Below, one piece after another: positions 1,835 through 39,934 of a stretch of DNA of 42,766 bases. The translations under genes and the position numbers were made by a program. The DNA lies in the sequence record SRR31156797_5930; one strand, 5' to 3'. Position 1 is the stretch's first letter. Every line of letters starts with the position of its first letter. The notes under the pieces were generated by a model. The model searched no databases. It was not told the DNA's origin and was given only the letters and a program-made list of their open reading frames with translations.

Positions 1835-1903
1835 TCCTTCCCCTTGTTTAAAAGCAATCCGCTTTTATCCCAGCTGCCGGCTTTGCGCTCACTAAGCCTG
1901 AAC

Positions 1904-2623: not shown

Positions 2624-2632
2624 GGGTTCATA

Positions 2633-6797: not shown

Positions 6798-6873
6798 GGG
6801 GCACCCTTTTTACTTGCGGGAATGGTCGGCATTGGGTTAATCTCCCGCCCAAAACAACCATGGAGAAAGCCTT

Positions 6874-8739: not shown

Positions 8740-8790
8740 GTCTCCTTAAATCGGGATCTCTGTAAACCCTTTAATTGTCCAATAAACTGA

Positions 8791-9246: not shown

Positions 9247-9270
9247 GTTATCGTCGATGATTGATCAAGA

Positions 9271-11174: not shown

Positions 11175-11187
11175 TAAGGAGATGCTT

Positions 11188-15259: not shown

Positions 15260-15476
15260 AATGAAATAGGAAGGATTATGAATAGAGATTCCCCCCCATT
15301 TCCATTCAGCAGTCCCAAATGCGACGGCCGTGTGAATTCGGCCAAAGAGCCATATTTTCAAATAAACGATACAGCTTCGCGGATAAATCCGCTGTGACAT
15401 TGTTTCGCCGGCAGCCTGCCCCTTGGACGAACACCGTTCAGGGGTAACGCCCGGATACAGAAAGAGGGAGAAGAAT

Positions 15477-22296: not shown

Positions 22297-22923
22297 TCAT
22301 TTTAAAATGCCCCGGGACAACATTTCAAGCGCCAGATTCCAGGTAATATCCAGATGGGTTTTGCGACTCATGGCCTTCTTGCTGTTTTCAAGATGGATAA
22401 TGCCCAGGAAAGAAGTCCATACCACCTCCGCCAGCGTTTTCGGGCTGCAATCCCGAAAAACGCCCTGCCCAATGCCGTATGCCATTATTTTTGACAGGTA
22501 TTCATAGTTGCGTGACCCTGAGTGATCCAGCATGATCCTCAGGTTTTCCGGCAGGTTTCGAATCATTTCACTTTGGTGAAAATAGAGGGTTGCATTGAAT
22601 GACGACCTGTCTTTTTCATAAAAGGCAATGAATGTGGACCACAACGACTCCAGCAATTTATCTTTTACTTCAAACCGACCGGCGTATAGGGTTTTCAGCC
22701 GTTCCCTGAAAAAGTCCGAATATGAGACAATGGCATGAATAAAAATTTCATCTTTTGTTTTGAAATAAAGATACAAGGTGGCACGGCTCAACTCCGCCGC
22801 TTCAGCAATTTTTTCCATTGTGATGGCGTGATACCCCTCTTTGTCGTAAACCTGTATGGCCGCCCTGAGAATAGATGCACGCCTTCTGTTTTTTTCACGC
22901 TCACGTCGTTCTTTGATACCCAT
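22297..22923 (-). CDS. TetR/AcrR family transcriptional regulator
   Basis: MGIKERRERE...ITMEKIAEAAELSRATLYLYFKTKDEI HTH. Confidence 0.93.
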   Translation of the reverse strand: MGIKERREREKNRRRASILRAAIQVYDKEGYHAITMEKIAEAAELSRATLYLYFKTKDEIFIHAIVSYSDFFRERLKTLYAGRFEVKDKLLESLWSTFIAFYEKDRSSFNATLYFHQSEMIRNLPENLRIMLDHSGSRNYEYLSKIMAYGIGQGVFRDCSPKTLAEVVWTSFLGIIHLENSKKAMSRKTHLDITWNLALEMLSRGILK

Positions 22924-22991
22924 ATTCAGTGCCTTATCATGGGTTCCCACGCAGAGGCGCGGGAACCGGACCTATATTCCGACTTCTCTCC

Positions 22992-25265
22992 CTACCCCTC
23001 TTCTTCCATCGATTTCAGAATCTTCTCCGGCGTAATGGGCAGATCCTTGCACCGGTATCCGGTGGCGTGATAAACGGCATCGGAAATGGCGGGGGCCGTG
23101 GGGGATGCCAGTCCCTCGCCGCACTCCTTGGCACCCATGGGACCTTCCGGCTCATAGGTGTCGATGTGCGTCACCTCGCTGGGGGGCATGTCCATGGCCG
23201 TGGGCATTTTGTAGTCGAGGAAATTGGTATTGAGGGTTTTTCCGTCCTCCATGACGAACTGCTCGGAGAGCGCATATCCCAGTCCCATTTGAATGGAACC
23301 GGCCAACTGCCCCTCCACGCCCTTGGGGTTGATGACGGTACCGCAGTCGTGGGCCGTCCACATCCGTTTCACGTCCACTTTGCCGGTTTCCCGGTCCACA
23401 TCCACCAGGGCCACCTGTGCGCCGAATCCAAAGGCAGGGGTCACCAAGCCTTTATCCCGGGGCGTGTAGTACCCATGGGCGATCAGGGGTTCACCCCGCT
23501 TGGCTTTCTGAACCATGGCCACCACATCGCCGAAGGGAACGGCTTTTTTGGGTCTATTTTTGGGTTGAACCGTACCGTTTTTACATTCCATCTCATAGAT
23601 GACGTTTGCATTGAGATAAGCGGATAGGGCACCGAACAGCTTCTCCTTGATTTTTTTGGCTGCGTCAATAACCGCATTACCGGCCATGAGTGTCACCCGG
23701 CTCCCCCAAGCGCCCAGATCCGCCTGTGGCGTGGTGGCCGTATCGGCGGATGTAATACGGATATCTTCCATATTCAACCCCAGCTCTTCGGCCAGGATCT
23801 GTTTCATGGCCGTGTCGCAACCCTGTCCGATATCGGAAGCCATGGTGAGCAGGTGAACGGTGCCGTCTGAAAAGGCCCTTACTTCGGCAGCGGAAAAGGG
23901 GTACTGGGTATTGAACCAGTTGAATACCCCGCCGGAGATAAAGCTGTAGCATCCGATACCGATCCCTTGCCCCGGTTTGAGTTCCTTCCTGAGTCGTTTC
24001 CAGTCGCTCATTTCAGCCACCGCCTCAATGGACTCCTTAAAACCGCAACTGGATATGGTGGCCACATCGGGGATTTCGTCCCCGCTGACCTGCGCGTTTT
24101 TGAGCCGGATCGCCACAGGATCGATCCCCAGGGCTTCGGCGGCCAGGTTCATCTGAATTTCAGAGGCGTAAAGAGACTGTGGCGCCCCGAATCCGCGCAT
24201 GGCGCTGGCGGGCGGCTTGTTGGTGTAGGCGTGTCGCCCGTGAAACCGATAGTTGGGATATCGGTACAGCATGGCGCCGAAATTGCCGCAGAGAAAGGTG
24301 GCCGTGGGTCCCATGGCGTTATAAGCGCCGCCGTCCAGAATAATGCGCAGGTCCTTGGCCATCAGGGACCCATCTTTTTTGAACCCCACCTTTGAATGGA
24401 GCGTCATGGGGTGACGCCGTCGTCCGGTGAGGAATTCCTCTTCCCTTGAAAGGGTGAATTTAACGGGTCGCCCCGTTTCCTTTGCCATAAAAGCCGCGCA
24501 GAACTCCCAGGCGCGAAGCTCCATCTTCCCCCCGAAACCGCCACCCACAAAGGGCTTGATGACCCGAATGTCATTTTCCCGCATTTCCAGGGTGGACGCC
24601 AGTAAACACTGCACGATATAGGGCGTCTGGGTGGAGGTCCAGAGGGTGATCCGGCCGTCCAGATCCACCTGGGCCAGGGCCGAACAGGGTTCCAGGTAGG
24701 CATGGCTTACGGAGTGAACCTTGAAGGTATCTTCACGGACATAGTCCGATTCCGCAAAACCCTTTTCAATGTCCCCGTACTCAATTTTCCGGTTGACACT
24801 GACGTTACCGGGGCAATAATCGTGAATGACCGGTGCGCCTTCCTTTATGGTCGAATCCATATCATACAGACCTTCAAGCTCTTCGTACTCAACCTCAATG
24901 AGCCCAACGGCTTCCCGGGCGGTTTCCCGGTCCACGGCCGCCACGGCCGCCACTTCATCCCCGATGAATCTCACCTTATCAACGGCCAGGGCATATTCAT
25001 CCTGGGTGTCGGCGAACAGGCGCCAGTTGCCGTATTTCACTTTCGGAATATCCTTCCCCGTAATGACGCTCTTCACCCCGGGAAGTGCCAAAGCTCTGCC
25101 CGTATCAATATTTTTAATTCGGGCATGGGCCAGTGGGCTTCGCAGGATCTGCCCAAAGAGCATTCCCGGCAATTTCATGTCATCGGTATAAATGGCGGAT
25201 CCCCTCGCCTTGGCCACGGCATCGTTTCTAGGCACGTCTTTTCCCACGATACTGAATTGTTCCAT
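22992..25265 (-). CDS. Mo-hydroxylase large subunit, 4-hydroxybenzoyl-CoA reductase alpha (HcrA)-like
   Basis: IRVIKPFVGGGFGGK, YTNKPPASAMRGFG, ASDIGQG, GSRVTLMAGNA, GPMGAKECGEG. Family is secure; substrate is not established. Confidence 0.8.
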   Translation of the reverse strand: MEQFSIVGKDVPRNDAVAKARGSAIYTDDMKLPGMLFGQILRSPLAHARIKNIDTGRALALPGVKSVITGKDIPKVKYGNWRLFADTQDEYALAVDKVRFIGDEVAAVAAVDRETAREAVGLIEVEYEELEGLYDMDSTIKEGAPVIHDYCPGNVSVNRKIEYGDIEKGFAESDYVREDTFKVHSVSHAYLEPCSALAQVDLDGRITLWTSTQTPYIVQCLLASTLEMRENDIRVIKPFVGGGFGGKMELRAWEFCAAFMAKETGRPVKFTLSREEEFLTGRRRHPMTLHSKVGFKKDGSLMAKDLRIILDGGAYNAMGPTATFLCGNFGAMLYRYPNYRFHGRHAYTNKPPASAMRGFGAPQSLYASEIQMNLAAEALGIDPVAIRLKNAQVSGDEIPDVATISSCGFKESIEAVAEMSDWKRLRKELKPGQGIGIGCYSFISGGVFNWFNTQYPFSAAEVRAFSDGTVHLLTMASDIGQGCDTAMKQILAEELGLNMEDIRITSADTATTPQADLGAWGSRVTLMAGNAVIDAAKKIKEKLFGALSAYLNANVIYEMECKNGTVQPKNRPKKAVPFGDVVAMVQKAKRGEPLIAHGYYTPRDKGLVTPAFGFGAQVALVDVDRETGKVDVKRMWTAHDCGTVINPKGVEGQLAGSIQMGLGYALSEQFVMEDGKTLNTNFLDYKMPTAMDMPPSEVTHIDTYEPEGPMGAKECGEGLASPTAPAISDAVYHATGYRCKDLPITPEKILKSMEEEG

Positions 25266-25282
25266 TGGTTATTCCTTTCTCC

Positions 25283-26158
25283 TCAACTGTTCAAGGCCCG
25301 GTCGCGGGCTTCGGTAAGTCCCCTTCGCGTTAAGACCGCCACCATCTTTTTTCGGTATTCGGCGCTGCTTCTGACATCCGTAATGGGTTGGGATTCCGCC
25401 AACGCCGCAATCCCCGCCGCTTCGATGATCTCCTCGGTCAGTTGCCGCCCAAGCACCTTCGCTTCGGCCTTTTCGGCACGCATGGGTACCGGGGCCACGG
25501 CGCCTAAGAATATGCGGACATGACGGCAGATATCCCCCTCCATACGCACCATGACGCCTACGCATACGGCCGAAATATCCACTTTTCCGCGGGCCGAAAT
25601 ATGCTGGTAGGAAACACCTGAGTCCGTATCAGGGGTCGGAACCAGGATGGCGGTTAAAATTTCACCGGGACCGAGACCGTTCAATCCGGGCCCCTTAAAA
25701 AATTGATCCAGGGGCAACCGCTTTTCTCCTTTGGCACCGCTTATAACAACTTCCGCATTCATGGCGAGCAGGCATGGTGCATTGTCCGCGGAAGGGGCAG
25801 CGTTACAGATATTTCCGGCCACCGTACCCATGTTCCGGATCTGTACATTGGCCGTTTCCCGGGCCGCGGCGGCAACGGCCGGATAATACTTCAGGATGTC
25901 CGGATGGGATGCCACGTTTGCCAGAAGCGCTGTGGCACCGATTTTCAAACCTTTTTTTGAATCAAAAGTGATCTCTTCCAATCCCTTGATATGCTTGAGA
26001 GCGATAAGGGACCTGGGTTTCAACAGGCCATGGTTCATTTTCACCAGAAGGTCCGTTCCTCCTGCCAGCAAATGGGCCCCTTCCCCTTTATCCAGGAGAA
26101 GCTGTTGCGCCTCTTCAAGGCTCTCGGGTGCGAAGTAATCAAATTTAGGCAACGTCAT
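25283..26158 (-). CDS. Mo-hydroxylase FAD-binding subunit (CoxM/XdhB-like)
   Basis: LAGGTDL, QIRNMGTVAGNICNAAPSAD, LGAVAPVP, PITDVRSSAEYR. Start set to ATG 26158. Confidence 0.92.
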   Translation of the reverse strand: MTLPKFDYFAPESLEEAQQLLLDKGEGAHLLAGGTDLLVKMNHGLLKPRSLIALKHIKGLEEITFDSKKGLKIGATALLANVASHPDILKYYPAVAAAARETANVQIRNMGTVAGNICNAAPSADNAPCLLAMNAEVVISGAKGEKRLPLDQFFKGPGLNGLGPGEILTAILVPTPDTDSGVSYQHISARGKVDISAVCVGVMVRMEGDICRHVRIFLGAVAPVPMRAEKAEAKVLGRQLTEEIIEAAGIAALAESQPITDVRSSAEYRKKMVAVLTRRGLTEARDRALNS

Positions 26159-26663
26159 GTTTACCCCCCTCCATGTCCACACCCCTCGGGGATTGCTTCA
26201 TTTTGGTTGCAGCTTCCGATACCGCCTCCACAATCTGGATGTAACCGGTGCATCGGCATAAATGGCCGGAGAGACCTTCCCGGATCTCCTGTTCCGTGGG
26301 AGAACTGTTATTACTCAGAAGATAAGCTGCCGACATTTCCATACCGGAGGTGCAGAACCCGCACTGAATGGCGCCCGTTTCCACAAACGCCTCCTGGATG
26401 GGATGCAGCTCACTGCCCGACGGGGCCAAGCCTTCAACGGTTTGAATCTCTTTACCCTGAACCTCCAGAGCAAGGGTCAGGCATGAACTGACGCTTCGGC
26501 CGTTTACCAGCACCGTACAGGCGCCGCAATCCCCGGAACCGCATCCCAGCTTGGTGCCTGTCAGATTCAGGTCTTCGCGGAGCACCTCATTGAGGGTACG
26601 CCATGGATCAACGGCCAGGGAATATATATCTCCGTTAATCTTAAGTTCAATCGGATGTTTCAT
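26145..26663 (-). CDS. Mo-hydroxylase 2x[2Fe-2S] subunit (CoxS/XdhC/HcrC-like)
   Basis: GCGSGDCGACTV...SSC and QCGFCTSG...LCRCTGY. Confidence 0.95.
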   Translation of the reverse strand: MKHPIELKINGDIYSLAVDPWRTLNEVLREDLNLTGTKLGCGSGDCGACTVLVNGRSVSSCLTLALEVQGKEIQTVEGLAPSGSELHPIQEAFVETGAIQCGFCTSGMEMSAAYLLSNNSSPTEQEIREGLSGHLCRCTGYIQIVEAVSEAATKMKQSPRGVDMEGGKHDVA

Positions 26664-26856: not shown

Positions 26857-27672
26857 ATGGGAAAAAAAATACTGGTCGTTGACAATGATCGGCTCATGCT
26901 GGAGTTCATGGCGGATCTGTTTGAAGAAGAGGGTCATGAAGTGGTAACCGCGGAAGATGGTCTTTCCGCATTGGAAACTTTGAAAGATTATGTCCCCGAT
27001 GTGGCTTTTGTCGATCTTGTCATGCCCAACATCAGAGGCGACCGGCTGTGCCGAATTATTCGGAGCATGCCCCATTTGAAAAACCTTTTCATGGTGATCA
27101 TTTCGGCCGCGGCCCTTGAGGATCTGACGAATTTTTCCGAACTGGGCGCGGATGCCGCTGTTGCCAAGAGTCCATTTAACGAAATGTCGAAACAACTCTT
27201 GAAGATTTTAGACCAAAGAGATGAGATGATATATGAGGGTCCCGAAACATCAACAGGCCATCAAGATATCTATCAGCGGAAAATAACCAAGGAGCTGCTC
27301 CATGCGGAACGGCATCTGGAAACCATTTTAAACAATATTTCCGAAGGCATTTTCGAACTCAATCCGGATGGAAAGATCATTTTCTGCAATAATAAAGGAT
27401 TCTCATTATGCGGCGCTTCCGAAGCGGCGCTTCTGGGCCGAAATTTCTTTGAACTCTTTGATGGGAGTGACCGCGGGAAAATCCAAGACCTGCTCCTGAT
27501 GATCGGGGACGGTCCGCCTGAAATCAGTGACCGTTTTCAGGCAAAGCTGCACGAAAAACCGGTATCCCTGAAGTTACTGCCCGTGGAAGATCACCTGGGA
27601 TGGTCCGTTATCGCAATTCTTACACCCCTTCCCGATATTGGGAAACAAAGGGAGGCTTGGCATTTTAAATAA
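26857..27672 (+). CDS. Response regulator (REC + PAS, no output domain)
   Basis: ILVVDND, FVDLVMP; PAS segment ILNNISEGIFELNPDGKIIFCN...LLGRNF. Confidence 0.85.
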   Translation: MGKKILVVDNDRLMLEFMADLFEEEGHEVVTAEDGLSALETLKDYVPDVAFVDLVMPNIRGDRLCRIIRSMPHLKNLFMVIISAAALEDLTNFSELGADAAVAKSPFNEMSKQLLKILDQRDEMIYEGPETSTGHQDIYQRKITKELLHAERHLETILNNISEGIFELNPDGKIIFCNNKGFSLCGASEAALLGRNFFELFDGSDRGKIQDLLLMIGDGPPEISDRFQAKLHEKPVSLKLLPVEDHLGWSVIAILTPLPDIGKQREAWHFK

Positions 27673-27936: not shown

Positions 27937-30726
27937 ATGGGAACACACAGCAAAAAGAGAGCGGAATACAGTATCCGAACACATCCAGGAACACGACCAG
28001 CCTGGGTCCTATCCGTTCTCTTTGCCTGGCTGGTGTTCAGCGCCCCATCGTTTGCATCGGACGAGACCAAGCGGGTTCTGATCCTCTACTCGTTCAGATA
28101 CGGGCTCTCCGCAAATGCACTTATGGATGCGAATGTGACGACCGGTAGAGCCATTCAAACGGTCATGGAAAAGGGGTCGGCGCACAAGATCGCATTTTTC
28201 AGCGAGCGAATGGACGTATCGACCTTGCCGGAAAATAAATATTTCGAAGAGTTGCGAGACGCATATGGCGAGAAGTATGCTGGTCAGCCAATAGACTTGA
28301 TCATTTCAATAAACTATAGGGCATTGAAATTCTTGATTGACCACGGCAATGAACTCTGGCCGAATACGCCAATTCTCTTCAGTGGGATTGAAAAGGGTCG
28401 ACGGAAGCAGCTGAAGCAATTGAGGCCCAATATAACCGGCCTTTTTGCAGACGCCCGTTTCGGAGATATGCTGGACACCATATTCAAGATACACCCGGAA
28501 ACTCAACGGATTGCCGTCATCGTAGGCGCTTCGGAGACGGACCGCTTCATTGAGAAAAGGATTCGCCAAACCTCCCGAAAGTATTTGGACAGAGTTGATT
28601 TCACCTATCTCAGTAATTTCGGGTTCGATGCTATTTTGAGTAAAGTTTCAGATCTTCCACCGAATTCCATTGTTCTGTTTATAACGCTGCTTCAGGACGG
28701 TGAAAGCAAATTGGCGCCGGAAAATGCCCTATCTCTGATTTCCCGCATGTCGAACGCCCCTGTCTACGGTTTGTTTGATGTGTATGTGGGGCACGGAATT
28801 GTGGGAGGCAGCGTCTACAGCAACGAAGATAGAGGGATTAGAGCCGGGATTGTGGGGTTACGTATTCTGGAAGGGGAAAATCCCAGGGATATTCCGCTGG
28901 AAACGGGACAGAAACATTTCAGCCTCTACGACTGGCGACAACTCAAACGATGGGGCATCGCTGAACATGACTTGCCGCCCGGAAGCATCGTACGCCACCG
29001 GGAGCCGACATTTTATGATCTGTATAAGTGGTATATCTGGGGGGTAATCGCCCTGACAGCGGTTGAAACCTTCTTGATCAGCGTTCTGATGGTGAACCGG
29101 CGGCGGCGCCTTCGTGTGGAGAGGGAGCTACAAAAGGCACGCCATAAATTGGAGATTCGCGTGGCGGAACGCACCCAACAGCTTGAATCTCAAACCGTTA
29201 TACTATCACAAGCCAAAGAGGCGGCAGAAGCCGCCAATGTGGCAAAAAGCGCCTTCCTCGCCAACATGAGTCATGAGATCCGGACGCCACTGAACGCCAT
29301 ACTGGGTACGGTACAATTGCTGCGCCGGGCTTCAACATCCCTTGAGAGATACGAGGACAACCTCAACATTCTTACCCATAGCGGACAACATCTCCTGACG
29401 CTGATCGATGAGGTGCTTGAAATGTCCCGCATCGAGGCCGGAAGGACAAGCCTGGTTAAAACCGCCTTTAACCTCAACCGGATGCTGGATGGAATTGAAA
29501 AAATAAATCGTATGAGAGCCAGAAAAAAAACCTTAAAACTGAATGTGGAGCGTTCCCCCCATTTGCCGGACATTATCCGTCACGATGAGGGCAAACTGCG
29601 CCAGATCTTGATTAATCTCATGAACAATGCACTGAAATTTACAGAAGAAGGGAGTGTAATCCTCAGAGTCAGTGCCGTTAATGATTCTAACCCCCATATC
29701 CAATTTGAGATTTTAGACACCGGCATCGGCATAGCACCGGAAAACCATGAGAAAATTTTTGAGCCCTTCGCCCAGATGGAGAATGGAAAAAAGCACCAGG
29801 AAGGCGCCGGTTTGGGATTGGCGATCAGCCGCAATTATGTGAAACTCATGGGCGGCACCATCTCAATAAAAAGTCAGCCGGGAAAAGGCGCTGCTTTCAC
29901 GGTGAAATTGCCCTTCGAACCGCTCGACGAACACCATGCCGATCCGGTTGTACCAACCCGTCGCGTGGTTGGCCTTGAACCCGGCCAACCCCGTTACCGG
30001 GTGCTGATTGTGGAGGATGATCCCGGCGGCCGGTCCATATTGCGACAGTTATTGGAACAGGTGCAATTTCATGTCATTGAAGCTGTGGATGGGCAGGAGG
30101 CGGTCCATTTGTATCACAGCCAAAAACCGGATCTGATATGGATGGATATCCGATTGCCGGTGATGAATGGGTTTGAGGCAACCAGGAAAATTCGGGATTC
30201 GGAACGGGCAATGGAGGATGGAGAAGATAAAGGATCCGGAAACCGCAAAACGCCCATCATCGCCCTATCCGCCAGTGTTTTTGAGGAAGATGGGGAAAAG
30301 GTTCTGGCCGCCGGTTGCGATGATTTTGTACGAAAACCCTTCAAGGAAACGGATATTTTCGAAAAGATGGCGCAACACTTGAGTGTTCGTTATATCTATA
30401 AAGATCTGAACGTAAAAACCGAAGAAGCTGAAGCATCAATTCTGAATGCTGCCGATCTGACGCCTCTGGCTGTGGAATGGATTGATGAGGTTTACCGGGC
30501 CGCCAAGGGGGGAAAGGCAGAACAAATCATAGAACTTCTAGAACAGATACATCCCGAGCATCCGGAGCTGGCTGCGAAAATCTCAGAGCACGTGAAGAAT
30601 GATCAATTCATGCCGCTTGTCCAGGTGATTGAACAGTCCCGGTACATGGACGTTATCAAAGGAAAAGAAGATGAGCAAAACAGATCAACCGGGAATCCAA
30701 GGGGATATCCTGATTATCGACGATGA
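27937..30726 (+). CDS. Hybrid sensor histidine kinase (periplasmic substrate-binding-like domain, TM, HisKA, HATPase, REC)
   Basis: FLANMSHEIRTPLN, QILINLMNNALKFT, DTGIGI, GAGLGLAIS, LIWMDIRLPVMNG. Periplasmic region with GHGIVGG and DWRQLKRWGI. Confidence 0.93.
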   Translation: MGTHSKKRAEYSIRTHPGTRPAWVLSVLFAWLVFSAPSFASDETKRVLILYSFRYGLSANALMDANVTTGRAIQTVMEKGSAHKIAFFSERMDVSTLPENKYFEELRDAYGEKYAGQPIDLIISINYRALKFLIDHGNELWPNTPILFSGIEKGRRKQLKQLRPNITGLFADARFGDMLDTIFKIHPETQRIAVIVGASETDRFIEKRIRQTSRKYLDRVDFTYLSNFGFDAILSKVSDLPPNSIVLFITLLQDGESKLAPENALSLISRMSNAPVYGLFDVYVGHGIVGGSVYSNEDRGIRAGIVGLRILEGENPRDIPLETGQKHFSLYDWRQLKRWGIAEHDLPPGSIVRHREPTFYDLYKWYIWGVIALTAVETFLISVLMVNRRRRLRVERELQKARHKLEIRVAERTQQLESQTVILSQAKEAAEAANVAKSAFLANMSHEIRTPLNAILGTVQLLRRASTSLERYEDNLNILTHSGQHLLTLIDEVLEMSRIEAGRTSLVKTAFNLNRMLDGIEKINRMRARKKTLKLNVERSPHLPDIIRHDEGKLRQILINLMNNALKFTEEGSVILRVSAVNDSNPHIQFEILDTGIGIAPENHEKIFEPFAQMENGKKHQEGAGLGLAISRNYVKLMGGTISIKSQPGKGAAFTVKLPFEPLDEHHADPVVPTRRVVGLEPGQPRYRVLIVEDDPGGRSILRQLLEQVQFHVIEAVDGQEAVHLYHSQKPDLIWMDIRLPVMNGFEATRKIRDSERAMEDGEDKGSGNRKTPIIALSASVFEEDGEKVLAAGCDDFVRKPFKETDIFEKMAQHLSVRYIYKDLNVKTEEAEASILNAADLTPLAVEWIDEVYRAAKGGKAEQIIELLEQIHPEHPELAAKISEHVKNDQFMPLVQVIEQSRYMDVIKGKEDEQNRSTGNPRGYPDYRR

Positions 30727-32884
30727 CGCCTCCAGTTTGCAGACCCTGTCTGCAATTTTATTGGAGCAGGGATACGGCGTGCGTCGCGCCAGAGACGCCC
30801 GAACAGCCTTGATGATTATCAACAATGCCCCACCCGCTCTGATACTGCTGGATGTCCGGATGCCTGAAATGGACGGTTTTGAACTCTGCCAAATACTCAA
30901 GGCGGATGGAAAGAGCTGTGACATCCCGATCTTGTTTTTAAGCGCCCTGGTTGAAACCGTGGATAAAATCAAAGGCTTTGAAGTCGGAGGGGTCGATTTT
31001 ATAACCAAACCGTTTCAAGTGGAAGAGGTTTTGGCCAGGGTTCAAACGCATCTGGATCTATGCGGATTGCGACATCAACTGAAAAAACAGAATGAAGTTC
31101 TCAAAGCTGCGCTTAAAGAACAAGAAAATGCGAAATCAGCGTTAAAAAAAGCGAATGACGAACTTGAAGAACGTGTTAAAGCGCGTACGGCGAAATTAGA
31201 GGAGGCCAACGTTGGATTAAAAGGGGAAATTGCTGAACGAACGCGGATGGAAAAAGTGCTCTCGGAGAGTCAACATCGTCTGAGAGAAGAGATTGAAGAA
31301 CGGAAGCATCGTGAAAAGGAACTGAGGCATACACAAAAAAAACTGGAACAACAGTTTAAATTCGACAACATGCTGTCGATGCTTTCCACCAAATTCATCA
31401 ATTCACCATTTGACCGGATCGACCAAAAAATCGATGAAGGTCTCGGTCTCATCACCGGGCAACTCGGCATAGAACGGATTGCCTTGCTCCAATTCTCACA
31501 AGACAAGTCTCAATTGAATCTGACGCACGCCCATGCAATTGACTCCCGACAATGGACTCCGATCTTCCGGGTGAGTGGGCGGTTGCCCTGGTTTTCGGAA
31601 TCGCTGCGCCGGGGAAAAACGCTTCGGATCTCCAGCATTGTCGATATGCCGAAAGAAGCGGCGGCTGAGAAACGGTATGCGAAAGAGCAAGGATATAAAT
31701 CATCTTTAACTATCCCCATGAAAGTTGATGAACAGATAATAGGGGCCGTTTCATATTCAAGTATGACACGTGAACGGAACTGGTCCGATGAGCTCGTTCA
31801 GCAGTTCAATCTGGTTAGTGAGATCTTTGCCAATATCTTGGATCGAAAACAAAAGGAACAAAGCCTGCAAAGTTCTTTTTTTGAGATTAAACATCTGAAG
31901 GATCGGCTGCAGCAGGAGAATGTCTATTTAAAGGAAGAGATCAGGCTCGAACACAGGCATGGTGAAATCGTTGGAAAAAGCCCTGCCATCAATTATGTGC
32001 TAAGACAGGGAGAGCTGGTTGCCAAAACCAATTCCACGATCCTGATTCAGGGCGAAACCGGTACGGGAAAAGAATTATTGGCGCGAGCAATTCATAATTT
32101 GAGCCCACGCAAGGAGAGGGCAATGGTGACGGTGAACTGTGCCGCCCTTCCACCAGGCCTCATTGAAAGTGAATTGTTCGGACGTGAAAAAGGCGCATAC
32201 ACCGGCGCTTTGGCGAAACAGGCAGGGCGCTTTGAAATTGCTGATGGTTCGACCATTTTCCTCGATGAGGTGGGCGAACTGCCTCCGGAACTCCAAACCA
32301 AGCTTCTCAGGGTGCTTCAGGAGGGGGAATTTCAGCGTCTCGGCAGTTCCAAAACCGTCAAGGTTGACGTCAGGGTGATTGCCGCCTCCAATCGGAATCT
32401 ATCCAAAGCTGTCAGCGACGGTTCTTTTCGAGAAGACCTCTATTATCGCTTACATGTTTTCCCCATAATCATCCCCCCCTTGCGTGAGCGTCAGGAAGAC
32501 ATCCCGCTCCTTGTTTGGGCATTTGTAAAGGAATTTGAAAAGACCATGGGGAAACGCATTTCGACCATCCAACAGTCGAAGATGGAGGAGATGATGAGGT
32601 ACGCGTGGCCTGGAAATATCAGGGAATTGAGAAACGTGGTGGAGCAGGCGATGATCGTCACCAAGGATACCATGCTGAATTTACGGGCACCCGAAACCAC
32701 GGCCCCCGAAAAAATACACGACCTCAGTCTCGAAACCTTTGAGCGCACCCATATTAAGGCGGTTCTTGATAAAACCGGATGGCGCGTAAAAGGCAACAAT
32801 GGCGCAGCAGAGATTTTAGGCCTGCACCCTGCCACCCTGTTTTCAAAAATGAAGAAACTGGGAATCAAAAGAACCTACGGATGA
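30671..32884 (+). CDS. Sigma54-dependent activator (REC, coiled coil, GAF, AAA+, Fis HTH)
   Basis: LLDVRMP; GETGTGKE, ESELFGREKGAYTGA, FLDEVGEL, FREDLYYRL, WPGNIREL, GAAEILGLHPATLFSKMKKLGI. Start ATG 30671. Confidence 0.95.
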   Translation: MSKTDQPGIQGDILIIDDDASSLQTLSAILLEQGYGVRRARDARTALMIINNAPPALILLDVRMPEMDGFELCQILKADGKSCDIPILFLSALVETVDKIKGFEVGGVDFITKPFQVEEVLARVQTHLDLCGLRHQLKKQNEVLKAALKEQENAKSALKKANDELEERVKARTAKLEEANVGLKGEIAERTRMEKVLSESQHRLREEIEERKHREKELRHTQKKLEQQFKFDNMLSMLSTKFINSPFDRIDQKIDEGLGLITGQLGIERIALLQFSQDKSQLNLTHAHAIDSRQWTPIFRVSGRLPWFSESLRRGKTLRISSIVDMPKEAAAEKRYAKEQGYKSSLTIPMKVDEQIIGAVSYSSMTRERNWSDELVQQFNLVSEIFANILDRKQKEQSLQSSFFEIKHLKDRLQQENVYLKEEIRLEHRHGEIVGKSPAINYVLRQGELVAKTNSTILIQGETGTGKELLARAIHNLSPRKERAMVTVNCAALPPGLIESELFGREKGAYTGALAKQAGRFEIADGSTIFLDEVGELPPELQTKLLRVLQEGEFQRLGSSKTVKVDVRVIAASNRNLSKAVSDGSFREDLYYRLHVFPIIIPPLRERQEDIPLLVWAFVKEFEKTMGKRISTIQQSKMEEMMRYAWPGNIRELRNVVEQAMIVTKDTMLNLRAPETTAPEKIHDLSLETFERTHIKAVLDKTGWRVKGNNGAAEILGLHPATLFSKMKKLGIKRTYG

Positions 32885-32913
32885 TATATCATCCATCGGA
32901 TGGTTTGTCATCC
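32879..32913. promoter_or_regulatory. Candidate upstream activator sequence: two tandem GGATG-N6-CATCC sites
   Basis: Perfect 16-bp palindrome GGATGATATATCATCC (32879-32894) and GGATGGTTTGTCATCC (32898-32913), 100-130 bp upstream of the -24 box. Confidence 0.7.
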
Positions 32914-33011
32914 CAAAAAGAGCCCGTGTTTTATTTCATCCGGCATCCATCCTTTTATTAAAGGCTCGTAAATACAATGCTTTCCGCACCTTCCCTATGG
33001 CCTTGTCCCTT

Positions 33012-33027
33012 TGGCACAGGCCTTGCT
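33012..33027 (+). promoter_or_regulatory. Sigma54 (-24/-12) promoter
   Basis: TGGCAC-AGGCC-TTGCT matches TGGCAC-N5-TTGCW. It is intergenic, directly downstream of a sigma54 activator gene. Confidence 0.9.
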
Positions 33028-33111
33028 TTACTGTATCCATAACTTCTGTCAGAGATCAACTCAGAAACCGATTTTCTATCATTAATCCCAATTGTCGGAA
33101 AACCGGAACAA

Positions 33112-33432
33112 ATGGTCATATCCACCCTGCAGATAGTTGTGCCCGCTGAAAAGCGTGATGAAGCCCTGGAAGTCCTTGGCATGTATCAAGGGCCCACCTG
33201 TCATCAGCCCGGGTGTATCAGTTGTCAGGGTTTTGAGTCGCTGGACAAGGCAAACCACTTTATTCTGATCGAAAAATGGATGTCGCAAACCGATCTGGAC
33301 CGGCATCTGCGCTCAAGTGAATATAAAAAGATCCTGACGCTCATGGAAGCTTCCAGCGAACTACCGGACATTAAGTTCCTGACGGTATTGAACTCGGCCG
33401 GTATGGAGTTATTGGAACAGCTGAGGGGATAG
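33112..33432 (+). CDS. Antibiotic biosynthesis monooxygenase (ABM) domain protein
   Basis: 106 aa; QPGCISC, FILIEKW, DLDRHLRS pattern. Confidence 0.8.
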   Translation: MVISTLQIVVPAEKRDEALEVLGMYQGPTCHQPGCISCQGFESLDKANHFILIEKWMSQTDLDRHLRSSEYKKILTLMEASSELPDIKFLTVLNSAGMELLEQLRG

Positions 33433-33464
33433 ATGGGAAATATGGTGATAATAGGAACCATCCA

Positions 33465-34862
33465 ATGAGTCAGCCGAAAAAACATGCATCAAGCAAGAAA
33501 GAACCGAACCGCAGCCGACGCAATTTTCTAAAATTGGGTCTTTCGGGAGCAGGCGCCGTTGCTGTCGCCGCCGGAGGTATCACTGTTATCAAGCGCATGG
33601 AAGGCATTCCCCATGATGAATTTCCCTTGCCGGTTAGAAAAAACTTCAAAGGCATCGACCAGCGGAATCAAATCAACATTTTTTCGGGGAGCAAGCTGCT
33701 GAACGAAAAACACCCCGAGCGCAACCGAAGCTTCAATGAACAACTAAAAAAGGAAAACCCTAAAGGGTATAAACCCTTTAATTTTTATGAAACCAGACGT
33801 CATTTCATGAAACAGCCTTATCGGGACGCACCAGGCTACAGCCAGCTTGAAAGAGCCCTGGCGGTTGGAGGGTTTTTCAGCGCCAGTCAGCAGCTCGGGG
33901 GGGGCAGCATGGAAGCACCCGACAAGGGTGTATCCAGCTGGAAACAGAATATGCTGGCCAAGAGTCGATACAAGTTTGACTCCCCCAAAGAGGCGGCGAT
34001 TGCCATTAAGAGTGCCGCTCGCTTATATGGTGCTTTAAGATGCGGCATCACGAAACGGGACAAGCGGTGGGATTACGACCCCATGTACGATGCCAGTATG
34101 GAACGTGAACTCACATGGGAAAAGGATTTTCCCTTTGAGCCCAAAACGGTCATCGTTGTCATGGTTGAAATGGACTACCATGCCATGGGTTCCGCACCTT
34201 CCTGGATGCAGGACGCAACGGTTGGCGATGCTTATGCCAATGCCATCAAAATTGCCGGGCAACTCACCATTTTTTTGAGGCAATTGGGTTACCAGGCGGT
34301 GGCTTCCATGAATGACTTGGGGATCAACGCCCCCTATGCCATCGCCGCCGGTTTGGGCGAAGGGGGCCGCAACGGCCAGGTCATCACGCCGGAATACGGC
34401 CCACGTGTCCGTATAAGCAAAGTCTACACCGATTTTGAAGGGGTCGAATACGACAAACCACGCACCTTCGGCGTGGCCAGTTTCTGTTTGAATTGCAAGC
34501 GATGTGCGAATTCCTGCCCGTCCAAAGCCATCACTTTTGAAGATCAATCCTGGGAGCCCACCTATTCCTCTGATCCGGACTATATCTGGCATGCATCCCC
34601 CGGGGTTTTAAAATTCCACAATGACGCCAAAAAATGCGCTAAATTCTGGATCGATAATGACGGGGGCTGCGGTAACTGCATTGCCTCCTGCCCCTATAAC
34701 AAACCGAACTTCTGGCACCATCGATTGGTAGACGCCCAGAACGTAATCGCCCCGGGTCCCGTGCACGCTTTTATGCGCGAAATGGACATCTTTTTCGGAT
34801 ACGGAAAGGTGGATGACCCTGAAAGGGTCCGAAAGTTCTGGAAAATGGGGAACAAGGCGTGA
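33465..34862 (+). CDS. rdhA: Reductive dehalogenase catalytic subunit (corrinoid, 2x[4Fe-4S], Tat signal)
   Basis: SRRNFLK twin-arginine motif; IKSAARLYGA, FLRQLGYQA, AIAAGLGEGGRNG, ITPEYGPRVRISKVYTD; CLNCKRCANSCP (CX2CX2CX3CP) and CAKFWIDNDGGCGNCIASCP (CX10CX2CX3CP). Confidence 0.95.
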   Translation: MSQPKKHASSKKEPNRSRRNFLKLGLSGAGAVAVAAGGITVIKRMEGIPHDEFPLPVRKNFKGIDQRNQINIFSGSKLLNEKHPERNRSFNEQLKKENPKGYKPFNFYETRRHFMKQPYRDAPGYSQLERALAVGGFFSASQQLGGGSMEAPDKGVSSWKQNMLAKSRYKFDSPKEAAIAIKSAARLYGALRCGITKRDKRWDYDPMYDASMERELTWEKDFPFEPKTVIVVMVEMDYHAMGSAPSWMQDATVGDAYANAIKIAGQLTIFLRQLGYQAVASMNDLGINAPYAIAAGLGEGGRNGQVITPEYGPRVRISKVYTDFEGVEYDKPRTFGVASFCLNCKRCANSCPSKAITFEDQSWEPTYSSDPDYIWHASPGVLKFHNDAKKCAKFWIDNDGGCGNCIASCPYNKPNFWHHRLVDAQNVIAPGPVHAFMREMDIFFGYGKVDDPERVRKFWKMGNKA

Positions 34863-35140
34863 TGGATATCGCTTGGTATATCCTTGGGGTGCTAACCGGG
34901 GCGGTTGCATATGCTCTGTACCTCATATCAAAGAAAAGCAGTTTGAGCTGGGTTTTGGTGTCGTGCCTGATAATCGGCAGTTTTTTAGTCCTTTTCAGTA
35001 TCGCCTGGGCCGTCGGGTCCGTGCTGGAAGGCGTCCCCCGGGCCGCCGGCATGGGGCTGCTTCTTTTCGGATTGAGTGGTGTGGTTATCCTTACACTGAC
35101 CGGGAGGAAGATTGCTTCCCGGAAAGACATTATAAAATGA
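34862..35140 (+). CDS. rdhB: RdhB-like membrane anchor
   Basis: 92 aa with three hydrophobic segments; FSIAWAVGSVLEGVPRAAGMGLLLFG resembles PceB-type anchors. ATG overlaps the rdhA stop (TGATG). Confidence 0.82.
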   Translation: MDIAWYILGVLTGAVAYALYLISKKSSLSWVLVSCLIIGSFLVLFSIAWAVGSVLEGVPRAAGMGLLLFGLSGVVILTLTGRKIASRKDIIK

Positions 35141-35392
35141 GGGGTTACGTGATACTCAAATATTTTCTTTCAAATATGGAGATAGGCTGAAAATGATGGG
35201 CTTCACCTGGTATTTCCTGGGCCTGTTAACCACCGGATCGATTGTTTTGCTTTGGCATTTTTCCAAACGTTACCAACTCAACCGGCTTGCCTGGGCCGGG
35301 CTGAGCATGGGTATTGTTCTCATTCTTTTCAGCATTGCCTGGTCCGTGGGGTCCATATTGGAAGGGGTTCCCCGGGCCGCCGGCATGGGGCT
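35036..35392 (+). repeat. Duplicated rdhB segment
   Basis: Exact 23-mer CCCCGGGCCGCCGGCATGGGGCT at 35036-35058 and 35370-35392, within longer similar coding stretches. Confidence 0.9.
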
Positions 35393-36692
35393 TATTTTGT
35401 TCGGTTTATCCGGTATCGTCATTTTGACCATCGCCTTTCGATACACGTTAACCAAAAGACCGAAGTTGCTTGCACATGCTTTGCCCAAAGCGGTCGAGAC
35501 CCATGTGGCGTTAAAAACGGAAAAACCCGCCGGGAAATCGATCCTTGGTTCCTATTTATCAGTGGGTCTACGCTATGGCGCCTATCTTTCGTTGGTTACT
35601 GCGTTTATTATGGGCCTGTCGTCCGAAGGCAAAGATTATGAAAGCATGGTTCGGAACAAATTCAAGGACCAGAAGCTCACCAGGATCAACGACGACCCGG
35701 TTGTTTTCCAGCTGGGCGAAAGAGGTGACGGCCCCGGCAATTACGTTTTGATCCAGGAGGGCCATGGCTACGGCGGACCCTTTGTTTTTGGCCTTCGCAT
35801 CATGGAAGACGGCAAGATCCATGGGATCATACCGCTGGACCACAAAGAAACTCAGGCCTTCGTCAAAAAAATTGAGGATGCCGGATACCGGGATCAATTT
35901 ATCGGCAAAAGTGTCGGCAATGACTTTATCGTGGGCGTTGATATCGACGCGGTTTCAGGCGCCACCGTAACCTCCATGGCCGCTGCCGAAGCGATTCGCA
36001 ACGGCGCTCATGTGGCTGCGGTGGAAAAGTTTGAACTCGATCCCAACTGGAAAAAAGTACCCTGGAAGTTCGGGCTGGATGAAATGCTGATTCTGATTTT
36101 ATTTATCCTGGCCTTTTTCCCTAAAATCCATGGGGGTAAACCTTGGAAATATATCTACCGGGTCGCAACCATCGCAATTGTCGGTTTCTACCTGAATGCA
36201 GCCATATCCATCGGAAATATTGCCGGTTTGGCCTTGGGCTATATTCCGGGAATTAAAGATCACCTCATCTGGTGGATGTTGGTGATGGGGACCCTGCTGG
36301 GGATTGTCCTGTTAGGTAAAAATGTTTACTGCTATCGAATTTGTCCCTTTTACGGAATTGAATATTTTTTGCAAAAAGTCAGCGGTATGAAACTGAACCC
36401 GTCGCGTGCTGTAATAAAGCGGACCCGTTTCATGGTAAATTTCCTGTTATGGCTGTCGGTAATGGTCATTTTTCTGTCAAAACATCCGGCACTCGGCTCC
36501 TACGAACCTTTTGCCATGATGTTTTCATTGAACGGCAGCGGAATCCAGTGGTTCATATTGCCGCTGGCATTGATCGGGTCTTTTTTTATGTCCACTTTCT
36601 GGTGTCGCTTTTTTTGTCCCTGCGGCCAGGCATTAACGAAACTGATGCAATTTAGGAAAAGCGCTCTGAATTTATTTCAAGCAAAGAAGTAA
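35193..36692 (+). CDS. rdhC: RdhB-RdhC fusion: RdhB-like N-terminus, FMN-binding domain, NosR/NirI-type membrane domain
   Basis: Residues ~1-88 repeat the RdhB motif; GYGGP, ETQAF, flavinylation motif DAVSGATVTS; TM helices with YCYRICP and WCRFFCP (CX3CP). Confidence 0.85.
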   Translation: MMGFTWYFLGLLTTGSIVLLWHFSKRYQLNRLAWAGLSMGIVLILFSIAWSVGSILEGVPRAAGMGLILFGLSGIVILTIAFRYTLTKRPKLLAHALPKAVETHVALKTEKPAGKSILGSYLSVGLRYGAYLSLVTAFIMGLSSEGKDYESMVRNKFKDQKLTRINDDPVVFQLGERGDGPGNYVLIQEGHGYGGPFVFGLRIMEDGKIHGIIPLDHKETQAFVKKIEDAGYRDQFIGKSVGNDFIVGVDIDAVSGATVTSMAAAEAIRNGAHVAAVEKFELDPNWKKVPWKFGLDEMLILILFILAFFPKIHGGKPWKYIYRVATIAIVGFYLNAAISIGNIAGLALGYIPGIKDHLIWWMLVMGTLLGIVLLGKNVYCYRICPFYGIEYFLQKVSGMKLNPSRAVIKRTRFMVNFLLWLSVMVIFLSKHPALGSYEPFAMMFSLNGSGIQWFILPLALIGSFFMSTFWCRFFCPCGQALTKLMQFRKSALNLFQAKK

Positions 36693-38144: not shown

Positions 38145-38239
38145 GCGCTTTCCGTTTAAAACAGGTTATGGCAGTCGGCCCGCTTTCTTTGCATCAGGGG
38201 GGCTGTGGGTGTTATGAAAAAAGAGAGTCAGGGGATATT

Positions 38240-39934
38240 ATGACAACAAAAGGTTGTTTTTTTCTCATTATTTTGGCGCTGACAGGGCTTGTGGCTTGCA
38301 GCAAACAGGCCTTAATCAAAAGTCCTGCCACGGCGTCGAGTGTTTCGGGCACAGTAACTTATCCGAAAGACATGGCACTTCCTCCGCAAGCGGTGGTCCA
38401 CGTGATCCTATCGGATATCACCTCCCCGGACGCACCCAGGGCGTTTGCGGCGCAGACCATTACCCCACCCGGCCGAGTGCCGATCCCGTTTGATATCAAT
38501 TATGACTCATCCCGGATTGACCCCGAACACACCTATTCCGTGCAGGCATGCATACGATTTGATGATCAGGTCCGGTTTGTCTCAACGAGGGCCTATCCCG
38601 TAATTACCAAGGATCATCCTGACAAAGTGAAGGTCATCCTGGATCCGGTGGAGACCCTCCAAGGGAAAACCACGGATTCCGGCCTTATCTCCGGAAGCGC
38701 TGATACCCCCCTCCAGCAGAATATCCATGTTACCCTCGCCGGCGAATGCGGGATCGCTGCCGCCCGGTACGATCGCATGACCCAGGCGAGGGCATCGGAA
38801 ATCTTACCGCCCGATTTGTTTTCCGGCCCCCACCATAAGGTCCGCGAAGATGTGCTCATCCGTGGTCCGCAGTATTTTTTCGTGGTCGACTCGGATTTCG
38901 GACAGTATCAGGCCCAGGGCCAGCCGAGGCTGCGGCGACTGGTCAGAGAGATCAACGCCCTTGCCGCGTTGAAGGAGGTCACCAAAACAAAGGCGTTCAA
39001 GGAGTCACTTTCAGAAGCGGCTTTGGAACCGGTTGTTGCGCTCAAAGAACTCGTGCTCCACCCTGTGGATACAATCACAGGCGTCCCCAAAGGGATCTGG
39101 ACTTTTGCCGCCACCTCAAAGGAGTCCTTGACCGGCGACCGCAGCCAGTATGAAGATCGCTACCTTGAAGCGATCATCACGGTGTCCAGGTACAAGCGAC
39201 GCTATGCCGCCGAACTTGGGATCGACGTCTATACGAGTAACCCCGAGGTCCAGAAGGAATTGAACCGTTTGGGTTGGGCTGCCGCCATCGCCAGCTGGAC
39301 ACCAACGGTACTGCTAATACCTGCCGCAGGTACCGCCAAGGCCCTGTATACGGTATTCGACTGGACCGAGACCCTCAACAGGATAATCACGGAGACGTCG
39401 CCCGATATCCTCCGTTACCAGAATCGAAAGAAGCTCAAGGCGATGGGCATTTCAAACCGGTTGTGCGACGGGTTTCTGAATCACAATTATTATTCACCCC
39501 GCAATCAGACAGTGATCACCGAATACCTCGCATCCATGAAAGAGGCCGACGGGAAAGCGCTGTTGATTGAACAGGCCCTTAATGCGACTTCCGAGATCGA
39601 TGCATTCACCTATCAGCAGATCGTCGAGGTTCTGGCGGGATATAACCGGAGCGTATCGCCGATAATCGAACTCGGTGCACATAAGGGTATTCCGGTGGGC
39701 TATGCGAAAAACGGGTCGGTGGTCATGGGGTTCCCCGTTGACCTCGGCCGCTGGACGGCCTTCACTGAGTATCTGTTGGCTGATTTTGGCAAAAAACAGC
39801 CCGGAAAGGAGGAAATTAAAAAATCGGAACTGTGGATCTTGGGTGGACTCACGCCTCGAGCACGACGCCAGCTCACAACCCTTGGCATCTCTGTCACCGA
39901 ACACGCAGACGACAAGGTAGGTATGATGGATTAG
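38240..39934 (+). CDS. Lipoprotein with YbaY-like N-terminal domain fused to a large domain of unknown function
   Basis: Lipobox LVAC; VSGTVTY, ALPPQA, LSDITSPDAP, VPIPFDINYDSSRIDP, YPVIT. The ~390 aa C-terminal part is unassigned. Confidence 0.75.
   Translation: MTTKGCFFLIILALTGLVACSKQALIKSPATASSVSGTVTYPKDMALPPQAVVHVILSDITSPDAPRAFAAQTITPPGRVPIPFDINYDSSRIDPEHTYSVQACIRFDDQVRFVSTRAYPVITKDHPDKVKVILDPVETLQGKTTDSGLISGSADTPLQQNIHVTLAGECGIAAARYDRMTQARASEILPPDLFSGPHHKVREDVLIRGPQYFFVVDSDFGQYQAQGQPRLRRLVREINALAALKEVTKTKAFKESLSEAALEPVVALKELVLHPVDTITGVPKGIWTFAATSKESLTGDRSQYEDRYLEAIITVSRYKRRYAAELGIDVYTSNPEVQKELNRLGWAAAIASWTPTVLLIPAAGTAKALYTVFDWTETLNRIITETSPDILRYQNRKKLKAMGISNRLCDGFLNHNYYSPRNQTVITEYLASMKEADGKALLIEQALNATSEIDAFTYQQIVEVLAGYNRSVSPIIELGAHKGIPVGYAKNGSVVMGFPVDLGRWTAFTEYLLADFGKKQPGKEEIKKSELWILGGLTPRARRQLTTLGISVTEHADDKVGMMD

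Follow-up and report, generated by a model that had tools for sequence, protein, structure and literature searches.

The window analysed here, a 42,766-nucleotide stretch of DNA from sequence record SRR31156797_5930, carries a reductive dehalogenase (rdh) gene cluster that is probably a sigma-54-dependent operon, abm-rdhA-rdhB-rdhB'C ending in a small open reading frame (ORF), for a corrinoid reductive dehalogenase that is periplasmic, anchored to the membrane and dependent on menaquinol. What could be observed directly is the gene content, the motifs, the family and fold to which the proteins belong, and the conservation of the rdhB'-rdhC fusion gene (rdhB'C). The DNA probably comes from a marine bacterium of the Desulfobacterota type, and the module belongs to a kind already published for marine Deltaproteobacteria, because rdh clusters with RdhB and RdhC that are linked to sigma-54 and its bacterial enhancer-binding proteins (bEBPs) are documented there in passages of PMC6299228, PMC7031245 and PMC12908670. 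As such, it represents one more probable organohalide-respiring lineage in marine Desulfobacterota, a useful but expected addition to the rdh clusters of these bacteria, which participate in natural bromine and chlorine cycling. For two of its details we found no published description, namely the clade-wide fusion of an RdhB-like anchor to RdhC, and a gene for a small one-helix peptide behind the fusion gene. The anchor welded to RdhC matters more than the module itself, as it makes RdhC membership of the dehalogenase complex testable. The original prediction, made from the letters of the window, had proposed a sigma-54-controlled, respiratory-type module; every feature that it listed is present, and it overlooked the small ORF after rdhB'C as well as the likely activator-binding palindromes. 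The module and its regulatory region comprise the following features (aa, amino acids).

27937-30726, + strand: gene for a hybrid sensor histidine kinase of 929 aa, in which hydrophobic segments at residues 22-40 and 367-385 flank a periplasmic ABC_sub_bind-type domain
30671-32884, + strand: gene for a sigma-54 enhancer-binding response regulator (bEBP) with REC, coiled coil, GAF, AAA+ and HTH_8
32879-32894 (GGATGATATATCATCC) and 32898-32913 (GGATGGTTTGTCATCC), no strand: two tandem palindromes, GGATG-N6-CATCC, a candidate upstream activating sequence
33012-33027, + strand: predicted sigma-54 -24/-12 promoter, TGGCACAGGCCTTGCT (TGGCAC-N5-TTGCT), 85 bp ahead of the start codon of the ABM gene
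33112-33432, + strand: ABM-domain gene, 106 aa
33465-34862, + strand: rdhA, 465 aa, corrinoid/2x[4Fe-4S] reductive dehalogenase catalytic subunit with predicted Tat export
34859-35140, + strand: rdhB, 93 aa, free membrane anchor with three helices
35193-36692, + strand: rdhB'C, the rdhB'-rdhC fusion gene, 499 aa
36711-37031, + strand: small membrane-protein ORF, 106 aa, beginning 19 nt past the rdhB'C stop

By sequence and fold, RdhA is a true reductive dehalogenase and not an epoxyqueuosine reductase of the QueG type. It scored 199.7 bits against the NCBIfam model TIGR02486 (cut-off 160.35), with residues 215-447 covering model positions 76-314. As had been predicted, a Tat signal is combined with both Fe-S motifs: a twin-arginine motif, RRNFLK, at residue 18 is followed by a hydrophobic stretch at residues 24-42 (regular expression and hydropathy), the TAT_signal_seq model TIGR01409 is matched at 19.9 bits (cut-off 16.7), and regular expressions locate CX2CX2CX3CP as CLNCKRCANSCP at residue 341 and CX2CX3CP as CGNCIASCP at residue 402, the cysteines of which are invariant in a 36-sequence family alignment. 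Among solved structures, the closest sequence matches were PceA of Desulfitobacterium hafniense (DhPceA; 8q4h_A, E 1.4e-63) and PceA of S. multivorans (SmPceA; E 1.1e-42), with weaker matches to NpRdhA (E ~2e-20) and QueG (E 3.6e-5). An AlphaFold2 (AF2) model of RdhA computed from 36 family members (pLDDT 76.1, pTM 0.79) had 8q4h_A as its top Foldseek match (TMq 0.72, E 5.8e-30, ~28% identity), and TMq was 0.61-0.64 for SmPceA, 0.58-0.61 for NpRdhA and 0.32-0.35 for QueG. In HMMER alignments with positions counted by hand, Tyr257 and Arg316 align with the catalytic residues Y246 and R305 of SmPceA (Y337 and R396 of DhPceA). Likewise, K413, H419, D441 and Y446 align in HMMER alignments with K489, H495, D515 and Y520 of DhPceA, described in PMC10624902 as lining a menaquinone pocket at the PceA/PceB interface, and all of these RdhA residues, catalytic and pocket-lining, are invariant in the 36 family members.

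Directly behind rdhA, the predicted three-helix anchor coupled to the catalytic subunit was recovered as RdhB, a protein of 93 aa with three hydrophobic segments in its hydropathy profile. At the junction of the two genes (GCGTGATGG) the rdhB start, either GTG at 34859 or ATG at 34862, overlaps the TGA stop of rdhA, which makes translational coupling plausible. Compared with solved structures in the PDB, residues 4-81 of RdhB matched the anchor PceB (8q4h_C, E 7.7e-5), all other matches lying at E > 0.5.

The next gene encodes the FMN/CX3CP membrane protein of the original prediction, and its product is a fusion. Residues 1-89 are a paralogue of RdhB (RdhB'; 53% identity to RdhB, E 6e-26) and are followed by a variable linker (~90-116), a transmembrane helix (117-142), an FMN-binding domain (~149-278) and a membrane module. 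The FMN-binding motif [S/T]G[A/S]TX[S/T] is present as SGATVT at residues 255-260, with Thr258 as the motif threonine, and the CX3CP motifs as CYRICP at 380 and CRFFCP at 471 (all by regular expression); the protein matches FMN_bind PF04205 at 4.4e-11. Matches to the RnfG, NosR and NapH models stay far under their full-length cut-offs (NosR 38.7 against 1000 bits, NapH 22.5 against 213 bits), and the NapH/NosR likeness is confined to residues 299-484. The protein lacks the C-terminal ferredoxin (4Fe-4S) domain of NosR and NapH, since its C-terminus lies only 23 residues past the second CX3CP motif. In the AF2 secondary structure, helices at 2-26, 31-56 and 60-88, that is three extra N-terminal helices before the RdhC part, are followed by the unmodelled linker, the helix at 117-142 and a beta-rich FMN domain; within the membrane module pLDDT falls below 50 and simple hydropathy picks up only some of the helices, where a PceC-type RdhC is described with six transmembrane helices and the FMN domain behind the first (PMC5928378). 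The arrangement is topologically coherent: the RdhC N-terminus is reported as cytoplasmic, with a single helix that takes the FMN domain to the outside (PMC5928378), and the three helices of PceB are reported to leave its C-terminus in the cytoplasm (PMC10624902), so that the RdhB' part would end in the cytoplasm and the next helix would carry the FMN domain outside. A predicted complex of RdhA (residues 46-465) with RdhB' (residues 1-92) scored 0.05 against a mark of 0.34.

The fusion is strongly conserved. Across 35 homologues, G256, A257, T258 and both CX3CP motifs are invariant, few parts of the protein are better conserved than the RdhB-like domain (E57, G58, P60, R61, A62, M65, G66, F70, G71 and G74 invariant), and the linker (~90-116) is free to vary. 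Within the best 120 RdhB'C homologues, 117 are 495-572 aa long at a coverage of 98-100%, and the three shorter ones start within the RdhB-like domain and look like shortened gene calls. The precomputed family PF27193 on fusion proteins seems, as judged from such shortened gene calls, to span the RdhB-like region. A library-wide search with residues 1-92 returned 79 representatives at E<=0.001, mostly of 80-110 aa like free RdhB, together with three full fusions of 499-566 aa and several proteins of intermediate length, maybe fragments. In a tree of free and fused RdhB domains, eight of the 12 inner branches are open and each group needs two changes. The window fused copy is 71% identical to the fused copy of the related locus L001 and 48-53% identical to free copies; these pairwise identities hint that the RdhB duplication is older than the split of these lineages. 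The fusion itself looks derived within the Desulfobacterota-type clade, because the Endozoicomonas locus L008 of the sister clade encodes a free-standing RdhC (415 aa) with a single N-terminal helix. No description of an RdhB-RdhC fusion was found in full-text literature searches; the RdhC list of PMC5928378 and the gene maps of PMC6299228, PMC7031245 and PMC12908670 may hold some.

The RdhA family is large in metagenomes: of 8000 candidates scored, 621 proteins lie at E<=0.001. The top 120 are 53-88% identical to the window RdhA, with none reaching 90%, and carry generic names only. From a species-level genome collection, nine genome loci with RdhA were recovered. The closest, L001, belongs to a metagenome-assembled genome (MAG) of an uncultured bacterium (83% RdhA identity), and L002 (76%), L003 (74%), L004 (65%) and L005 (67%) to Desulfobacterales, Desulfocapsaceae, Desulfobulbaceae and Desulforhopalus MAGs; L006 comes from a MAG labelled Pseudomonadota, in which the contig stops inside rdhA, and three loci are from Endozoicomonadaceae (36-38%). 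A quick maximum-likelihood tree of 42 RdhA homologues, from which six duplicate rows had been dropped, placed the window RdhA in an 8-row clade (SH-aLRT 99) made up exclusively of Desulfobacterota-type MAG sequences, with Endozoicomonadaceae as sister and a support of 100 for the clade pair. Together, rdhA, a free rdhB and an rdhB'C of ~500 aa were found in five of the six Desulfobacterota-type loci, L006 being the sixth. The order rdhA-rdhB-rdhB'C is intact in L001, L003, L004 and L005, and in L002 the free rdhB stands upstream of rdhA (183-449), with the rdhB'C start downstream before the contig end. A phylum sample of 401 genomes yielded an RdhA homologue at E<=1e-30 in 30, with more than 40% identity in one genome only and no RdhA from outside the clade above 40% identity. 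The cluster is thus a patchy accessory trait, given RdhA homologues in 30 of the 401 genomes and RdhB'C in two of the 301 genomes sampled from the class.

The related loci also differ in their surroundings. Tandem rdhA paralogues stand ahead of rdhB and rdhB'C in L004 (5968-8732) and L005 (2213-5001), and these loci thus encode two catalytic subunits and two anchors. Upstream neighbours vary by locus: they are unannotated proteins in L004 and L005, and in L001 an NDH-2-type pyridine nucleotide-disulphide oxidoreductase gene (1703-3070) directly upstream of rdhA, whose product is a possible electron-input partner. In the Endozoicomonas locus L008, a gene for a 207-aa TPR-like protein (7727-8350) lies between rdhB and the free-standing rdhC; TPR genes are mentioned in PMC6299228 for one deltaproteobacterial reductive dehalogenase (RDase) clade.

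By their sequence features, the kinase, the bEBP, the palindromes and the promoter form a complete sigma-54 regulatory unit upstream of the module. The hybrid kinase has the domain order ABC_sub_bind-type, HisKA, HATPase_c and REC (Pfam matches: HATPase_c 1.5e-29, Response_reg 3.8e-25, HisKA 2e-19, ABC_sub_bind 1.9e-6), and is read as the likely sensor of the rdh operon because its gene adjoins and overlaps the bEBP gene; the signal may be an organohalide. The bEBP ORF opens at a TTG (30629), and the ATG at 30671 is the likelier start; the kinase gene and the bEBP gene overlap here, at the 3' end of the former. The bEBP matches Sigma54_activat (PF00158, 5.3e-70), Response_reg (1.9e-24), GAF (4.4e-7) and HTH_8 (1.1e-7), with a Walker A motif, GETGTGKE, and the GAFTGA loop present as a GAYTGA variant. 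The consensus -24/-12 promoter that had been predicted ahead of the module is confirmed as the sole match to TGGCAC-N5-TTGCW on both strands of the window (expected 0.06; at least one match in six of 100 shuffles), and no sigma-70-like site was found on the + strand of the intergenic region that holds it. Similarly, the two palindromes are the only window matches to GGATG-N6-CATCC (expected 0.11; at least two matches in one of 100 shuffles). Together they cover the stop codon of the bEBP gene and 30 bases beyond it, at a distance of 98-133 bp from the -24 element on its upstream side; activator-binding sites of bEBPs usually sit at such a distance, and the bEBP presumably binds here. A REC-PAS protein of 271 aa, encoded at 26857-27672 directly upstream of the hybrid kinase, may share its signalling chain.

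At the other end of the module, a small ORF lies directly 3' of rdhB'C in all five loci in which this region is present, i.e. the window, L001 (6451-6603, 51 aa), L003 (5729-5866, 46 aa), L004 (10530-10649, 39 aa, its ATG overlapping the rdhB'C stop) and L005 (~6793-6948, ~52 aa). The window copy, at 106 aa, has about double the length of the other four (39-52 aa), and the conserved part is the N-terminal ~50 aa. In all five products a polar tail at the N-terminus precedes a single hydrophobic helix, which carries the motif G-x-Y/W/V-L-A/S/T-N-x-x-Y-x-x-x-I, or in its narrower form G-x-Y-L-A-N-x-x-Y-x-x-x-I-L. The window copy matched no Pfam family. From its position and conservation, the small ORF may encode an extra small subunit.

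The ABM gene that opens the module stands, by its distribution, outside the conserved cluster core, and is absent from related loci in tblastn searches (nine loci at 1e-5, 43 loci at 1e-3). Its product matches PF03992 (1e-12) and belongs to a small subfamily in which C30-x4-C35-x2-C38 is nearly invariant and some members are named "quinol monooxygenase YgiN" by JGI. Homologues of the ABM protein form 15 clusters at E<=1e-5, as against the 621 RdhA proteins at E<=0.001. An ABM gene as the first of an anaerobic rdh operon is odd, and a literature search found no paper on ABM together with a reductive dehalogenase.

From these features, we infer quinone dependence, energy conservation, the composition of the complex and, more loosely, the substrate. 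In the proposed working of the module, the hybrid kinase would detect a periplasmic signal via its binding-protein-like domain and phosphorylate the REC-GAF-AAA+ activator, which would bind the two GGATG-N6-CATCC palindromes and open the sigma-54 promoter at 33012-33027. A corrinoid and a pair of [4Fe-4S] clusters would be inserted into RdhA while it is still in the cytoplasm; Tat export would follow, and RdhA would then dock onto RdhB-type three-helix anchors in a PceA2B2-like manner. Menaquinol would be oxidised at the RdhA/RdhB interface and electrons would pass via the two clusters to the corrinoid, where Tyr257 and Arg316 may assist cleavage of the carbon-halogen bond. Because the second anchor copy is fused to RdhC, it would hold both the CX3CP module and the flavinylated FMN domain at the enzyme. 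Rather tentatively, this could yield an asymmetric supercomplex in this Desulfobacterota clade, with an RdhA dimer seated on free RdhB and on RdhC-joined RdhB', plus the one-helix peptide. If this is true, the fusion would constitute "Rosetta-stone" evidence for RdhC as a physical, stoichiometric reductive dehalogenase subunit and would seat the flavin beside RdhA, so that the part played by RdhC in organohalide respiration could be approached directly. This role is debated: RdhC has been proposed as an electron carrier in PMC5928378, and this has been questioned in PMC10624902 because PceA2B2 alone binds menaquinone.

The original prediction rightly cautioned that sequence does not reveal the substrate. 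Bromophenols would be a guess, borrowed by analogy from strains or consortia of Desulfoluna and Desulforhopalus in culture whose sigma-54-associated rdh clusters are comparable. Its description of the module as self-contained does not hold, as rpoN, Tat, ApbE and corrinoid are all required from outside. In agreement with its statement that corrinoid, ApbE and chaperone genes are missing from the window, no cobalamin, Tat, ApbE or trigger-factor-like families were found in a hand-picked, non-overlapping set of large window ORFs. In the genomes of relatives with the same cluster, ApbE was present in four of four and CbiC in three of four, which is indirect evidence.

Several observations weigh against the proposed operon and its menaquinol-dependent enzyme. 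The fifth menaquinone-pocket residue of DhPceA, R499, aligns with D423 of RdhA, and the ~165 N-terminal residues of mature RdhA have no match to any family model. In PceB, the loop between transmembrane helices 2 and 3 holds E61-R-E63, an "EXE" motif to which PMC10624902 ascribes a part in proton release, and in both the free RdhB and the fused copy this E-x-E is replaced by E-G-V. The P-side loop reads E-G-V-P-R in both copies (L-E-G-V-P-R in free RdhB), where PceB has E-R-E. In fused copies, E-G-V is found in 33 of 35 homologues and E-G-E in the other two (P0234 and P0236), the first Glu and the Gly being invariant, and the loop of Endozoicomonadaceae RdhBs is E-K-E. For RdhB'C, AF2 gave a model of low quality (pLDDT 58.8). 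Finally, the -24/-12 pattern occurs in none of the nine related loci, and the kinase and activator genes, like the ABM gene, had no tblastn match in the same searches (nine loci at 1e-5, 43 at 1e-3), so that the regulatory link is drawn from this window alone.

Loss of the second Glu from E-x-E, the proton motif in PceB, would also fit a different division of labour, in which the enzyme is the same and the RdhC part is the real quinol dehydrogenase, passing electrons from the CX3CP module through the covalently bound P-side FMN to RdhA, with RdhB' serving only for docking and free RdhB as a plain anchor. We regard this as possible but unlikely. The similarity of residues 299-484 to NapH/NosR, the invariance of the CX3CP pairs and of Thr258, a fusion topology that is consistent with an FMN domain outside, and the strong conservation of the fusion all point in its direction. 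Set against them is the invariance in RdhA of four of the five PceA menaquinone-pocket residues, and direct quinol oxidation at RdhA/RdhB is therefore favoured; in addition, PMC10624902 argues that PceA2B2 alone suffices and gives PceC as ~50-fold scarcer than PceA, and redox data exist for no RdhC membrane module.

Less probable still is that dehalogenation is non-respiratory, i.e. a periplasmic detoxification or co-metabolism of natural organohalides without growth support. Tat export, an RdhB anchor and a conserved quinone pocket make up an energy-conserving architecture as described in PMC10624902, and both Desulfoluna and a Desulforhopalus-dominated consortium are reported to grow by debromination (PMC7031245, PMC12908670), although their clusters are likened to this one by sigma-54 association alone. 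The window nevertheless holds a single rdhA, the cluster is patchy (RdhB'C in two of 301 class genomes), the motif linked to proton release is altered, and growth coupling is unreadable from sequence. That the rdh labels mislead altogether, and the RdhA-like protein acts on a non-halogenated substrate in the fashion of QueG, is highly improbable. Such a reading could draw on the name "epoxyqueuosine reductase" given by JGI to 23 of the 120 listed RdhA homologues, and on the divergent N-terminal third of RdhA; the original prediction had itself named clustering with QueG as the outcome that would speak against it. RdhA falls away from QueG, because it passes TIGR02486, has PceA as its best match in both sequence and fold, and scores low against QueG (36.1 bits for the QueG model TIGR00276, cut-off 200; fold TM-score 0.32-0.35 versus 0.72 for PceA). 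Its catalytic Tyr and Arg are conserved, and Tat export and RdhB would be ill-suited to a tRNA-modifying enzyme. On balance, the PceA-type grouping of RdhA and the sigma-54 regulatory unit support, as far as sequence can indicate, the respiratory-type, inducible reductive dehalogenase architecture that had been predicted.

Other genes of the window were annotated alongside the module. Just upstream of the rdh regulators, a xanthine-dehydrogenase-family molybdoenzyme with 2Fe-2S, FAD and Mo subunits is encoded on the - strand (22992-26663). The top model for its Mo subunit is 4-hydroxybenzoyl-CoA reductase alpha, although below cut-off (729.9 against 994.55 bits), and the beta and gamma subunits fit generic XDH-type models better, so this identity was rejected; it would have hinted at halophenol or halobenzoate substrates, and the hint was dropped with it. 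A second Mo subunit (18014-20302, - strand) passes the XdhA model (1093 versus 780), and a TetR gene (22297-22950) stands between the two Mo-subunit loci. Further away are a partner-switching module on the - strand (8401-10458), consisting of a STAS anti-anti-sigma-like protein, an anti-sigma-type HATPase_c_2 kinase and a REC-SpoIIE phosphatase; two tandem, slightly overlapping genes for Slp-family outer-membrane lipoproteins (10650-11730); and a 615-aa homologue of KamA-family radical SAM aminomutases (15423-17270), in which the family match begins at residue 198 after a long N-terminal extension. A 588-aa protein (38168-39934) has an N-terminal YscW lipoprotein-chaperone domain (residues 56-157) as its sole recognised part, with ~430 residues beyond.

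Compared with known systems, PceA2B2 of Desulfitobacterium hafniense TCE1 (8q4h, PMC10624902) is the best sequence and fold match of RdhA, and nothing in the PDB other than its PceB matches the window RdhB below E 0.1. Both systems have a Tat signal and a pair of Fe-S motifs, together with the catalytic Tyr/Arg and the quinone-pocket K/H/D/Y. They differ in the E-G-V loop that stands for the PceB E-x-E, in R499, which is not kept in place, and in the number of anchors, as the window has two anchor paralogues, the second fused to RdhC, and PceA2B2 has one. Control also differs, since the window module appears to be under a sigma-54 bEBP whereas pceABCT is described with a constitutive transposon promoter, and unlike pceABCT no pceT-like chaperone gene was found among the scanned large window ORFs.

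Closer in regulation are the clusters of marine Deltaproteobacteria. For 31 RDase clusters of Deltaproteobacteria, PMC6299228 counts 22 bEBP genes and locates -24/-12 sites, and PMC7031245 describes Desulfoluna rdhABC clusters with sigma-54 regulators, in which RdhC1 carries the FMN threonine and two CX3CP motifs. With rdhABC clusters of the Desulfoluna spongiiphila type, the window module shares a Tat-RdhA and an RdhB, a bEBP gene next to the cluster, a -24/-12 element upstream, and an RdhC in which the FMN threonine and both CX3CP motifs are present (PMC6299228, PMC7031245). The RdhC proteins of these marine bacteria are given five or six helices in the same two papers, the passages of which leave an RdhB-like N-terminus unmentioned, and the comparison is one of descriptions only. 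In Desulforhopalus bin.3, RDase genes are reported to be induced ~3000-fold by 2,6-dibromophenol, and the loci resemble the window in an RdhA and RdhB, an FMN flavoprotein or "RsxG" neighbour and a HyfR-like sigma-54 activator (PMC12908670). The Desulforhopalus MAG locus L005, which may or may not belong to the published bin.3, is organised as rdhA-rdhA-rdhB-rdhB'C, with RdhAs ~67% identical to the window RdhA; it differs from the window in its two tandem rdhA genes, and in having no bEBP, ABM gene or sigma-54 site in the flanks examined.

Finally, the RdhC part of the fusion shares with the PceC/RdhC proteins of Dehalobacter and Desulfitobacterium, as described in PMC5928378, an outward FMN domain with the motif threonine, two CX3CP motifs and a likeness to NosR/NapH, and both are without a C-terminal 4Fe-4S domain. 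The fusion is ~120 residues longer at its N-terminus than these proteins, an extension made up of a linker and, ahead of it, an entire three-helix domain of the RdhB kind.

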